Shown here in pieces: positions 1 through 4,168 of a stretch of 64,000 nucleotides of DNA (position 1 is the first letter of the stretch; the number at the start of each line of letters is the position of its first letter). Origin of the DNA: Gemmatimonas sp. (GTDB lineage: Bacteria > Gemmatimonadota > Gemmatimonadetes > Gemmatimonadales > Gemmatimonadaceae); assembly GCA_031414535.1 (NCBI GenBank), contig JANNVQ010000054.1, positions 64,001 through 128,000 of the forward strand, given 5' to 3'. Position numbers and translations under genes: made by a program. Under the pieces are notes generated by a model that was given only the letters and a program-made list of their open reading frames with translations, did no database searches and was not told the origin of the DNA.

Positions 1-2
1 AG

Positions 3-83
3 GTCTTTGGGGTGGACCAGATCTACCTCTTCGACGCCAACGTCAGCCGCCTCCACAAGGTGGAGTTTTCCGCCACCGAGTAG
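3..83 (+). CDS. 3' end of an upstream gene (partial, product unknown)
   Basis: Frame 3 reads VFGVDQIYLFDANVSRLHKVEFSATE* with GC3-rich codons and stops at TAG 81-83; it begins outside the window. Confidence 0.6.
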   Translation, partial: VFGVDQIYLFDANVSRLHKVEFSATE

Positions 84-108
84 GCTAAAAGCCGATATAT
101 TTCAGGTC

Positions 109-1278
109 GTGCCCCCCAAGTCGCCCATCTACCTCGACCACGCTGCCACCACCCCGGTTCGCCCGGAGGTGATGGAGGCGATGATTCCCTTTTTCGGTCC
201 GCGGTTCGGGAATCCGTCGTCCACGCATCGTTGGGGTCGTGAAGCGCGCGCCGCGCTGGATGAAGCCCGCGAACGCGTGGCCCGCTGCTTCAACGCGGCG
301 CCGGACGAGATATGCTTCACTTCCGGTGGCACCGAAGGCGACAACCTCGCCGTGCTCGGCGGCTGGCGCATTCTCAAGGAGCAGGGCAAGAAGGCCGTTG
401 TCACGAGCCCGATTGAACACAAAGCCGTGTTGCAGGCCGTGCACCAGGCCGCCAAGGAAGGCGCTGAGGAGCGCATGCTCTCCGTCCAGCGCAACGGCAT
501 GGTGGATATGACCGACGCGCGCTCAAAGATCACGAGCGGCGACACGGCCCTCGTCTCCGTCATGTGGGTCAACAACGAGACGGGCGTCATTCAGCCTATT
601 GAAGCGCTCGCGGCCTTGACCAAGGCGGCTGGCGCGGTCTTCCACACGGATGCCGTGCAGGCCTTTGGCAAAGTCGAAGTGAACGCCAAGACTGTGCCAT
701 TTGATTTTGTGGCTCTGAGCGGTCACAAGCTTGGTGCGCCCAAAGGAATCGGCGCATTCTTCATTCGCCGCGGCACGCCGCTGGAGCCGCTGTTCTTTGG
801 CGGCACGCAGGATCGCGGCCGTCGGCCTGGCACCGAGAACGTCGCAGCAGCTGTTGGGCTCGCCCGAGCGATGGAGCTCGCGCTCGAGGAACGTGAATCG
901 CACTGGACCATGCTTGCGGCCATGCGGGATCAGCTCGAGGCGCGGCTTCTGGAGCGCATCCCTGACGCGGTGATTCACGGCCGTGACGCGAAGCGTGCGC
1001 CGCACGTGCTGAATATCTCCGTGCCGGGAACGGACTCGGAATCAATGCTCATGGCGCTCGACCTGCAGGGCGTCGCGGCGTCGAGTGGGTCGGCCTGTCA
1101 GAGTGGAAGCGTGGCGCCTTCGCACGTGCTGGCCGCGATGGGCGTGCGCGCGGACATCGCGAATGCCGCGATTCGGATGTCGTTCGGTGCGCTGAGTACG
1201 CCGGACGATGTGGACCGCGTGGCGGAGCTGTTCCCGGCCTTGATTGCCAAGGCGCGCGGGTTGAGCGGGGTCGCGTGA
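109..1278 (+). CDS. iscS: Cysteine desulfurase (IscS/NifS family)
   Basis: IYLDHAATTP, FTSGGTEGDN, HTDAVQ, SGHKLGAPKG (PLP lysine), SSGSAC catalytic Cys; GTG 109 chosen as start, close to the YLD motif. Confidence 0.93.
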   Translation: MPPKSPIYLDHAATTPVRPEVMEAMIPFFGPRFGNPSSTHRWGREARAALDEARERVARCFNAAPDEICFTSGGTEGDNLAVLGGWRILKEQGKKAVVTSPIEHKAVLQAVHQAAKEGAEERMLSVQRNGMVDMTDARSKITSGDTALVSVMWVNNETGVIQPIEALAALTKAAGAVFHTDAVQAFGKVEVNAKTVPFDFVALSGHKLGAPKGIGAFFIRRGTPLEPLFFGGTQDRGRRPGTENVAAAVGLARAMELALEERESHWTMLAAMRDQLEARLLERIPDAVIHGRDAKRAPHVLNISVPGTDSESMLMALDLQGVAASSGSACQSGSVAPSHVLAAMGVRADIANAAIRMSFGALSTPDDVDRVAELFPALIAKARGLSGVA

Positions 1279-1288
1279 CGTCACACTA

Positions 1289-1317
1289 TTGACAACGACG
1301 AAACTGTACCTTAGCCT
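1289..1317 (+). promoter_or_regulatory. sigma70-type promoter for the rtcB leader
   Basis: TTGACA (1289-1294), 17-nt spacer, TAGCCT (1312-1317); predicted start near 1324. Confidence 0.7.
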
Positions 1318-1420
1318 TCCCTTCGCTTGGGAGTCGCGTCCCGCACGAACGGTTGTCCCCTGTGGACTTCCTGCCGTCACTGACGCGACTCCTTTTTCTT
1401 TGCCCCTCAGGTATCCGACC

Positions 1421-1570
1421 ATGACTGTCCAACGCCAATTCCGCCGCGCAGCTCTCGCGAGCCCGATGATTGACATCATCGGACGCTTGGACGCGCGCGC
1501 GTTTGCGCCAGTCAATCTCACTCCGAAGACCAACACCGCAGGCGACAGAGGAATCCGCGAGCAGACCTAA
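1421..1570 (+). CDS. Putative 49-aa leader peptide
   Basis: ATG 1421 to TAA 1570 (MTVQRQFRRAALASPMIDIIG...EQT), ending 30 nt before a terminator hairpin; weak RBS, no recognisable family. Confidence 0.35.
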   Translation: MTVQRQFRRAALASPMIDIIGRLDARAFAPVNLTPKTNTAGDRGIREQT

Positions 1571-1600
1571 TGCTCAAGGCCCTCTTGGGTTAGCACCACC

Positions 1601-1641
1601 ACCCCGCCTGCGCTTCCCGAGCCAGGCGGGGTTTCTGTTTC
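1601..1641 (+). terminator. Intrinsic terminator / attenuator inside the rtcB leader
   Basis: Perfect 10-bp stem ACCCCGCCTG/CAGGCGGGGT followed by TTCTGTTTC. Confidence 0.65.
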
Positions 1642-1819
1642 CTGGCAATACAAGACGGCGTTGCGGATCTCCTCGCAGCGAATGAACGGGTGAAAGGCAC
1701 GCGACTCCCAACACTCGGCTCATTCACCACAGCGTCGGCAACTCCCTCGGGGCGCTCGCGGCGCGCTCGGCCTCGCCTCGAGGGAGAGGCATTCACATTT
1801 CTGAAGTGAGCAGTGACCA

Positions 1820-3031
1820 ATGAAAATCTTTGGACAGCACGACGAAAAGACCCTGATCCAGTTCGAATCCGTGCGCGAACGTGCAGTGGACGCCGCCCTC
1901 ATGGCCGACGGTCACGTGGGCTATGTCATGCCGATTGGTGGCGTGGCGGCGTATCGCAACCAGGTATCGGTGGTGGGCGTCGGCTTCGACATCGCCTGCG
2001 GAAACGCCGCGATTCGCACAGACCTCACGCTGCAGTCGCTGGGTGGCACGGCGGAAGCGCAGCACGTGGCCCTGCTTTCGTTCGCCGACGAGATTGCGGA
2101 TGTGGTGAGCTTCGGCGTCGGCCGGAAGAATCGCGCCGACGATGCGCCCGTGGACCATGAGCTCTTTGCTGCGAGCGAGTGGGATGCGGTCCCAGCGTCG
2201 CACCGCGAGGCGCTGCGGAACAAGGCGCGTATCCAGCTCGGCACCGTGGGAAGCGGCAACCACTATGTGGACGTGTTCGAGGACGAAACCGGTCACCTCT
2301 GGGTCGGCGTGCACTTCGGCAGCCGTGGCTTTGGGCACACCGTGGCCTCAGGGTTCCTCGCGCTCAGCCAGGGCGAGGCCTGGGATACCCGCGTGCGGGA
2401 GATCGAAGTGCTTTTGGATCTCGCCGAGCCCACGGGACACGACTACTGGCACCTGATGTCTCTCGCCGGCCGCTACGCTTACGCGGGCCGTGAGTGGGTG
2501 GCTCGGAAAGTGGTCAGCATCATCGGCGGCACGGAACTGGAGCTCGTACATAACCATCACAACTTCGCGTGGAAGGAAGAACACCACGGCGAGGAACTCG
2601 TGGTGATTCGGAAGGGTGCCACGCCGGCCTTTCCGGGGCAGCTGGGCTTCATTGGCGGATCGATGGGCGATGACGCCGTGATTGTGCGCGGTACCGCAAG
2701 CACCGCCTCGCAGGTGCAAGAGACTCAGCGCGACGCGCTCTACTCCACCGTCCATGGTGCGGGCCGTGTAATGTCACGCACGCGGGCTGCCGGTGGCCGC
2801 AAGGGCAAGCAGCGATTTCGGGGCGAGATTTCCGAAGGCATGATGGAGAAGTGGGTGCGGGAGAAGGGCGTGATCCTCCGTGGCGGCGGTGTGGACGAGA
2901 GTCCGCATGTGTACCGCCGGCTCCCGGACGTACTCGCCGCGCAGGGCGAGACGGTAGAAGTCCTGCACACCCTGCGGCCGCTGGTGGTCGTGATGGCGGG
3001 CGCCAACGAGTTTGACCCGTACAAGGACTGA
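1820..3031 (+). CDS. rtcB: RNA ligase RtcB (3'-phosphate/5'-OH)
   Basis: MADGHVGYVMPIGG, VGFDIACGN, GTVGSGNHY, VHFGSRG, NHHN, RKGAT and HGAGR motifs. Confidence 0.93.
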   Translation: MKIFGQHDEKTLIQFESVRERAVDAALMADGHVGYVMPIGGVAAYRNQVSVVGVGFDIACGNAAIRTDLTLQSLGGTAEAQHVALLSFADEIADVVSFGVGRKNRADDAPVDHELFAASEWDAVPASHREALRNKARIQLGTVGSGNHYVDVFEDETGHLWVGVHFGSRGFGHTVASGFLALSQGEAWDTRVREIEVLLDLAEPTGHDYWHLMSLAGRYAYAGREWVARKVVSIIGGTELELVHNHHNFAWKEEHHGEELVVIRKGATPAFPGQLGFIGGSMGDDAVIVRGTASTASQVQETQRDALYSTVHGAGRVMSRTRAAGGRKGKQRFRGEISEGMMEKWVREKGVILRGGGVDESPHVYRRLPDVLAAQGETVEVLHTLRPLVVVMAGANEFDPYKD

Positions 3032-3052
3032 CTCGCTCGGTATATTCCATCT

Positions 3053-4168
3053 GTGTCCTCACCGGCCAAGAACACCCGCCCCCGAGTCCTCGCCGCCATG
3101 TCTGGCGGCGTGGACTCTTCGGTTGCCGCCGCACTCCTTGTGCGGGAAGGCTACGACGTCGTGGGCGTCACCATGAAGCTGTTCAAGGATGGCGGCGACC
3201 TTCCCGACCGCCCCTGCTGTTCGCTCGATTCCGTGAACGATGCGCGGCGCGTCTGCGAGTCCTTGGGCATTCCGCACTACGTGTTGAATCTCCAGGACGC
3301 GTTCGGTCGCGACGTCGTCAGTGATTTCGTGGCGGAGTATGCGGCAGGTCGCACGCCCATTCCTTGCGTGCGCTGCAACACCTTCACCAAGTTCCGAGAC
3401 CTGCTCGCCAAGGCCGACGCCATTGATGCGCCGTGGATTGCTACAGGCCATTACGCGCGCGTGGCCGACGGCCGTCTGCAGCGCGGCGTGGATGACAACA
3501 AAGACCAGACATACTTCCTCTGGGGCATCGAGCGTGAGGTACTCTCGCGCATGATTCTGCCCGTGGGCGGTCTGACCAAGCCGGAAACACGTGCCGTTGC
3601 TCGCGAACTCGGCCTCCTCACTGCCGAGAAGCCCGAGAGCCACGAGATTTGCTTTGTCCCCGATGGTGATTATGTGAAGGTCCTCGAGCGCGAACTCCCG
3701 CCTGATGCGCCTGCGCTTACGCCTGGACCCATTGTCACGATGGATGGGACAGTGGTCGGCACGCACGAAGGTTTCGCGCGCTTCACCATTGGCCAGCGCC
3801 GTCGGCTGCCCGGTGGCTCGAGCGAGCCAATGTTCGTGGTCGCCTTGCGCCCCGAAGATCGGGCCGTGGTGATTGGGCCGCGGGAGGCCCTGCTCGGACG
3901 CGGCCTCGTCGCCAACGAGGCGAACTGGCTCGTGGACCGCATCCCCGACGAGGGCAGCACGGTGCTGGTCCGCATTCGTCATCGCGCGACACCGGTGGCG
4001 GCCACGCTTCTGCTTGCAACGCCTGAGCGATTCGAAGTCCTGTTGCACGAACCCGCGTACGCGATCGCACCTGGCCAGAGCGTTGTGCTCTATGATGCCG
4101 ATGCGATTGTACTCGGCGGCGGCATCATCAGCGCCAGCCGTCGGGTATTGCCGGTTCGCGCGGCCTGA
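3053..4168 (+). CDS. mnmA: tRNA 2-thiouridine(34) synthase MnmA
   Basis: AMSGGVDSSVAA PP-loop, TPIPCVRCN, ATGHYA, KDQTYFL, ESHEICF, FTIGQRR, APGQSVVLY. Confidence 0.95.
   Translation: MSSPAKNTRPRVLAAMSGGVDSSVAAALLVREGYDVVGVTMKLFKDGGDLPDRPCCSLDSVNDARRVCESLGIPHYVLNLQDAFGRDVVSDFVAEYAAGRTPIPCVRCNTFTKFRDLLAKADAIDAPWIATGHYARVADGRLQRGVDDNKDQTYFLWGIEREVLSRMILPVGGLTKPETRAVARELGLLTAEKPESHEICFVPDGDYVKVLERELPPDAPALTPGPIVTMDGTVVGTHEGFARFTIGQRRRLPGGSSEPMFVVALRPEDRAVVIGPREALLGRGLVANEANWLVDRIPDEGSTVLVRIRHRATPVAATLLLATPERFEVLLHEPAYAIAPGQSVVLYDADAIVLGGGIISASRRVLPVRAA

Follow-up and report, generated by a model that had tools for sequence, protein, structure and literature searches.

Two regulators of RNA-repair operons, RtcR and TrcR, are described as proteins (PMC7790460, PMC10272220). 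RtcR, which controls rtcBA and rsr-yrlBA-rtcBA, is an enhancer-binding activator with a CARF domain and binds tRNA halves (PMC7790460), and in Anabaena a protein repressor controls the TrcR regulon, which answers translation stress and includes rtcB, an HNH gene and a spare tRNA operon (PMC10272220). The whiB7 leader of mycobacteria combines attenuation through an upstream ORF (uORF) with positive feedback, exerted by a protein at the promoter (10.1101/2023.06.02.543512). Small transcription activating RNAs (STARs) are synthetic: an engineered antisense RNA with a linear seed region, made from a separate promoter, acts in trans by annealing to the 5' arm of an intrinsic terminator and so permits read-through (PMC5648800, 10.1101/022772). 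According to the 2015 preprint, a natural small RNA activator of this kind was not then known; later cases may exist (10.1101/022772).

The leader described here lies upstream of rtcB in a stretch of Gemmatimonas DNA of 64,000 nucleotides, hereafter called the window, and is a real, conserved regulatory RNA architecture. More than 150 distinct homologous leaders, nearly all from Gemmatimonadota, have the same layout, which consists, in order, of a predicted sigma70-type promoter, a strand A, a predicted terminator T1, a variable uORF, a second predicted terminator T2, a hairpin displaying the segment D, and then genes for RtcB, Ro60, Hen1-Pnkp or tRNAs. The cargo of RtcB, Ro60 and Y-like RNAs is shared with the RtcR operon (PMC7790460), whereas RtcR (PF06956) was not found in the genome of the window (G000, 98 % complete) and the promoter is sigma70-like. 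The TrcR regulon resembles the genes behind this leader in its link to translation stress, here putative, and in the presence of rtcB, an HNH gene and spare tRNA genes, and differs in being controlled by a protein repressor (PMC10272220). With whiB7, the leader shares a uORF followed by a predicted intrinsic terminator with a putative competing antiterminator, a putative translation-stress logic and a proposed feedback amplification, the agent proposed for that feedback here being an RNA loop (10.1101/2023.06.02.543512). It further differs from whiB7 in a second predicted terminator at the start of the transcript and in its RNA-repair gene targets. Compared with STARs, D is natural, is 11 nt in a hairpin loop and is encoded downstream in the very transcript proposed as its target. 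In CopA/CopT, the pT181 attenuator and the T-box, loop-loop nucleation on the nascent RNA decides terminator formation; the plasmid antisense RNAs are repressors transcribed from the opposite strand, and T-boxes bind tRNA, whereas D is on the same strand as its target and no Rfam model matched.

The rtcB leader of the window and its homologues

The leader is the stretch between a gene which, from its motifs, we take to be iscS-like and rtcB (RNA ligase, 1820-3031, on the forward strand like all features given below; PF01139, E 8.8e-61), with mnmA following rtcB. Three related segments reported in the initial annotation (1327-1339, 1382-1392 and 1699-1711) were confirmed letter by letter against the window, 1327-1339 and 1699-1711 being exact reverse complements of each other, and this 13-mer is present at only these two sites in the whole 3.7-Mb genome. 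When 1279-1819 was shuffled with dinucleotides preserved, 4 of 3000 shuffles contained an inverted repeat of at least 13 nt whose arms lay more than 100 nt apart; the same criterion picked out 65 of 6801 real genome windows. The triple arrangement, which the annotation had judged unlikely by chance, proved so on computation, occurring in 0/3000 shuffles and in 14/6801 real genome windows.

A repeat or REP element was ruled out as the source of these segments, the 13-mer being confined to the rtcB leader locus in the genome, as was a tRNA or tmRNA gene, none of which lies within the window. There was no Rfam match in the rtcB leader of the window, nor any match to a riboswitch, T-box or leader model of Rfam 15 in the window and the homologous loci scanned. 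For the A:B RNA as a Y RNA (YrlA/YrlB), neither an Rfam match in the leader nor a Ro60 (TROVE) partner in the 98 % complete G000 was found. A fourth near-copy of A occurs at 1267-1277, at the end of the iscS-like gene, with 10 of 11 positions complementary to 1698-1708; it is probably due to chance, because the genes upstream of the leader differ among homologues.

A DNA search of 60 relatives yielded four leaders upstream of rtcB with matching blocks, and strand A after a TTGACA promoter was found at no fewer than 120 loci. Among the 80 titled matches listed, 68 belonged to Gemmatimonadota, 2 were unclassified and 10 came from other groups, one of the ten (L115) having the full layout. The record of L115 is labelled Kofleriaceae, which would imply either transfer or mis-binning. 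Within the family of the window, the A or D pattern was present in 138 of 301 genomes, often with more than one match each, and an RtcB of the window's type in 109 of 301, both tallies including genomes flagged as unpublished.

Predicted promoter, terminators and D hairpin

The transcript is predicted from the sequence to begin at the start of A, downstream of a sigma70-type promoter (1289-1317) with TTGACA at 1289-1294, a 17-nt spacer and TAGCCT at 1312-1317; a general promoter scan of the window did not list this promoter. The arrangement TTGAC, 16-18 nt, TAnnnT was found upstream of A in 121 of 126 homologues, many of which had been retrieved with a pattern that already contained TTGAC, and the distance from the -10 element to the start of A was 6-14 nt in 121/126 leaders.

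Strand A (GGGAGUCGCGUCCC; 1327-1342, core 1329-1339), the 5' arm of T1 and the proposed target of D, is invariant across the homologous leaders and was exact at 15/15 positions in all 21 regions containing it out of the 80 chosen by RtcB or Ro60. Folding gave a mini-hairpin within A (GGGA/UCCC, 1329-1342, loop GUCGCG) that forms before strand B is made, with a computed stem probability above 0.5 in 120 of 128 pre-B RNAs. A structured insert at 1345-1377, variable in length and sequence among homologues, separates A from strand B and its U-run (1382-1400), the 3' arm of the predicted T1, which in homologues lies about 30-110 nt downstream of A. The local A:B hairpin of the window had a folding z of -5.0. 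Drift in B was mostly of the wobble kind: at a position free of the search pattern, C-to-T was seen in 107/147 and C-to-A in 1/147 (a wobble count of 282 to 11 for B was left out of the evidence, the search pattern having determined part of it). Judged by these letters and folds, the A:B helix with its U-run reads as a terminator.

The uORF of the window (1421-1570, 49 amino acids, no Pfam match) is conserved in position and not in sequence. Of 93 leaders, 88 had a uORF ahead of T2, where shuffled sequences gave 15 ± 3, with a median length of 62 codons, unconserved sequence and a stop codon at a median of 33 nt before T2. The predicted terminator T2 (1601-1640) covaries, with compensatory pairs among 72 distinct homologues; one pair position is A-U in 38, G-C in 22 and G-U in 12 of them. 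Folding of 1530-1615 predicted an antiterminator for T2 at 1537-1544, pairing with 1605-1612 in an 8-bp helix, and a complement to the T2 5' arm near the end of the uORF was found in 36/88 homologues compared with 25 % expected, a modest enrichment. By analogy, the uORF-T2 module is likely to be a ribosome-sensing attenuator of the whiB7 type. A conserved GCTGTTTGACAA, absent from the uORFs, was also observed between T2 and D in 29/88 leaders; we take it to resemble a Nus boxA, and its pattern was not seen upstream of the 16S rRNA in the three genomes checked.

The D hairpin (1680-1725), drawn from per-sequence folds and close homologues, carries in its loop the D core ACGCGACUCCC (1699-1709), complementary to A. 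Both sequence and fold agreed with the earlier statement that the distal copy lies wholly inside a 19-nt loop (loop 1693-1711, stem 1680-1692/1712-1725). The energy of the window's hairpin alone was unremarkable (z = -0.5), so support for it comes from the homologues: D lay at the tip of a long stem, with 30.1 enclosing pairs against 13.0 in shuffles (n=84), while the sequences flanking D in those leaders were only 34 % identical, and compensatory changes affected 11 of the 24 stem pairs among five close homologues. A consensus fold of 55 divergent D hairpins (RNAalifold on a MAFFT alignment) gave zero pairs; the 55-sequence model of D (R1) is therefore a sequence-only model, and the evidence for the stem is the per-sequence folding together with the five close homologues.

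Exact D was present in 64 of the 86 leaders with at least 800 nt downstream, with one mismatch in 10, two in 3 and no D in 9, and in none of the 12 control A matches lacking the promoter or T1. In the protein-chosen regions D was perfect in 19/21 and had one mismatch in 2/21. Seven of the 13 substitutions in D were C-to-T, and its invariant columns lie in CGCGAC, the predicted kissing core complementary to the A loop. D is nearly always in cis with A, at a distance of 300-740 nt. A further GC-rich hairpin, H (1742-1786; fold and homologues), occurs in a subset of leaders with the conserved loop letters CGCGG(T/C)G, the strict pattern being matched by 16 homologues.

Predicted pairing of A with D and proposed action in trans

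At equilibrium, A:B formed in 64 of 72 full leaders, A:D in 6 and neither in 2. The fold of the window depends on the 3' boundary, the minimum-energy fold being A:D for 1324-1822 and A:B for 1325-1754. D is transcribed after both terminators and therefore cannot rescue its own T1; the terminator-like A:B is made about 300 nt before D. The mutually exclusive cis switch put forward in the initial annotation is unlikely, because D is made after both terminators and A:B is favoured in 64/72 leaders. D is complementary to the 5' arm of the terminator, and binding was computed before T1 forms and not after: the ddG of D with the pre-B RNA was -8.9 kcal/mol, compared with -2.5 once T1 was complete and -3.2 when the core was shuffled, for the first 60 of 96 leaders (n=60) and with programs without terms for kissing loops or co-transcriptional kinetics. 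The annotation had also offered a trans interaction by a short terminated RNA; action in trans fits best, but the direction is reversed, the D-bearing read-through RNA being the proposed actor. The uORF, T2, rtcB and the regulon had no place in the annotation.

We lean slightly towards a reading in which D acts in trans on nascent A and blocks T1, which would provide RNA-only positive feedback within a repair leader gated by the uORF and T2. T1 would end the majority of transcripts early, leaving short RNAs in which B masks A and keeping basal output low. Transcripts that leak past T1 would reach the uORF, where, by likeness to whiB7, normal translation would let T2 form and ribosome stalling (through tRNA or rRNA damage, or antibiotics) would free the antiterminator. 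Read-through would then yield D together with the repair genes, and, according to the computed folds, D would stay free, its own A being already paired with B. In the model, the D loop ACGCGAC could, as the computed energies allow, kiss the A loop GUCGCG of newly started transcripts while B is still to be made; by growing to 11-13 bp, the contact could keep T1 from forming at all A-led promoters of the genome. Against this reading count the shortness of an 11-bp contact in trans, the modest antiterminator signal and the genomes, described below, that have A and T1 but in which D was not found. Within this likely ribosome-mediated attenuator, the chance that D is a natural trans-acting antiterminator loop is about even. 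The layout, its conservation, the covariation in T2 and in the D stem and the genes that follow are shown by the sequences; termination, stress sensing and action in trans are inferred. The wider form of the model, a protein-free, self-amplifying antitermination network in which stalling releases the D hairpin to antiterminate in trans every promoter of a phylum-wide RNA-repair regulon, including sensor-less satellite operons (hen1-pnkp, rtcB), could as readily be wrong as right.

If this reading is true, RNA repair is under RNA-based control across a hard-to-study phylum, and D in trans would be nature's equivalent of the engineered STARs, wired as positive feedback, and an RNA-only feedback amplifier. 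Should the trans step fail, the leader would still be a conserved regulatory RNA motif for which no description was found in a search of Rfam and of mainly open-access article text.

Separable modules are consistent with action in trans. In T1-only leaders the uORF, T2 and D are all missing, and 70-200 nt separate A from the start of hen1 or rtcB; seven are clear (in G346, G578, G581, G307, G280, G180 and G330) and two probable (G285, G311). All nine genomes with such leaders also carry a D-bearing leader elsewhere, a co-occurrence that is no statistical test because the genomes were mostly picked for at least two A matches, most A leaders have D, and kin are not independent. Conversely, the leader L389 (G578:C16:707638) has an intact uORF, T2 and D with A decayed beyond recognition, in a genome with two A leaders; the gene after it is presumably glutamate-dehydrogenase-like. 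Four other candidates for D without A were opposite-strand readings of T2 and were excluded with the other opposite-strand rows. Six uORF-T2 leaders without A-B were also without D, and two leaders with drifted A (L351, L356) have no D hairpin.

Retention of the leader with loss of the complementarity, which the annotation had named as counting against its proposal, did not occur, orthologous leaders keeping A, B and D. The covariation between A and D that it had suggested looking for was not seen in any set: compensatory A/D changes were absent from the 110 protein-chosen regions (80 chosen by RtcB or Ro60, 30 by the small ORF), in which A and D are both nearly invariant. The case for A:D pairing is therefore made by complementarity, wobble drift and co-occurrence.

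The conservation of A is stricter than its pairing partners need and would also fit a protein binding A. A protein or other factor that relieves T1 by binding to the invariant mini-hairpin of A, with D as an accessory that recycles, competes with or boosts it, is unlikely, if far from negligible. It would account for 14 nt of A being invariant when B and D are not, for the need of T1-only leaders for some trans factor, and for the persistence of A and T1 in genomes where D was not found. Two such genomes of one genus (G132 and G183, 98-99 % complete) retain T1, the uORF, T2 and an exact A but lack D in the leader, no convincing copy having turned up elsewhere, and four others (G065, in 540 contigs; G124, 69 % complete; G579; G580) keep A and T1 with no D found, in a genome-wide search that scored 150 candidates per genome and recovered 6/6 positive controls. 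However, no candidate protein travels with the leader, G000 being without the operon's two ORF families, Hen1, Pnkp and Ro60, with RtcR not found there either; the invariance of A could be explained by two to three partners per base (B, D and its own mini-stem); and D is missing from the six leaders without A-B, A itself having drifted in the two D-less leaders above. A regulator encoded by the operon was likewise rejected, being absent from G000.

It is improbable, in our view, that D instead pairs post-transcriptionally with the A of its own transcript, closing the leader to set processing, stability or uORF translation, with T1 simply leaky. The A:D pairing in the minimum-energy fold of 1324-1822 and the nearly constant location of D in cis are what such a closure would give, but A:B is favoured in the great majority of leaders, the window (1325-1754) included, and finished T1 resists D. 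A purely cis helix would moreover tolerate covariation of the kind seen in T2 and the D stem, and leaders with T1 only or D only exist.

Very little probability attaches to A as a ribosome-binding site (GGAG followed after 10 nt by AUG) or as a sensor of tRNA or rRNA fragments, T1 being relieved by ribosomes or broken RNAs. An AUG stands at +15 in 89 of 128 leaders and is missing from the window and 38 others; its frame is not kept open (57/89; the other frames gave 67 and 57) and its letters pair in helix P2; a coding start at +15 was rejected. The 5' end of tRNA-Pro(GGG) could, by eye, form an 11-bp helix with A, two of the pairs being G-U, but duplex energies across tRNAs form a continuum with no outlier, and tRNA-fragment sensing by A was set aside accordingly. 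Neither A nor D had a conserved rRNA complement in the three relatives searched, the rRNA of G000 being unassembled. That the three copies are DNA sites for a looping transcription factor, one form of the protein-binding site that the annotation had suggested, is hardly credible, since for all the invariance of a sequence beside the promoter, repeated at several operons per genome, the drift of B and D is mostly G-U-preserving, U-runs follow B and D lies within a covarying RNA stem.

Genes that follow the leaders

Of 63 leaders with enough downstream DNA, 30 preceded an RtcB cluster, 23 a Ro60 (TROVE) cluster and 2 Hen1-Pnkp, a tally in which rtcB is over-counted, some loci having been found via rtcB, and in which the gene clusters include overlapping spurious frames. 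Genes for tRNAs followed 5 of the 14 leader loci scanned, and YrlA-like matches, below the Rfam gathering score, lay downstream of D in one of five loci scanned. This context of RtcB, Ro60, Hen1-Pnkp, tRNA and YrlA-like genes therefore places the leader at the head of an RNA-repair regulon. The motif marks a translation-damage regulon and points to two protein families, spare tRNA genes and Y-like RNA genes as its members.

The first of the two families, of about 105 amino acids (L109:6266-6580, alignment A1), is often encoded by the first gene after the leader, was present in 36 of 401 genomes of the phylum and had no Pfam match below E 0.009. The second (L064:78-740; L095; L155; L159) follows leaders in which D often has a C-to-T change. 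Downstream of the A-led leaders L311, L336, L294 and L313 are ORFs that we take to be DksA/TraR-like and HNH-like. In the window, mnmA starts 21 nt past the rtcB stop (within 1-4168) and may be co-regulated with rtcB or need a promoter of its own. Spare tRNA genes and YrlA-like RNAs are located directly 3' of D at several loci (L018:908-980; L122; L109; L157; L146; L147), an arrangement reminiscent of the cyanobacterial trn operon.
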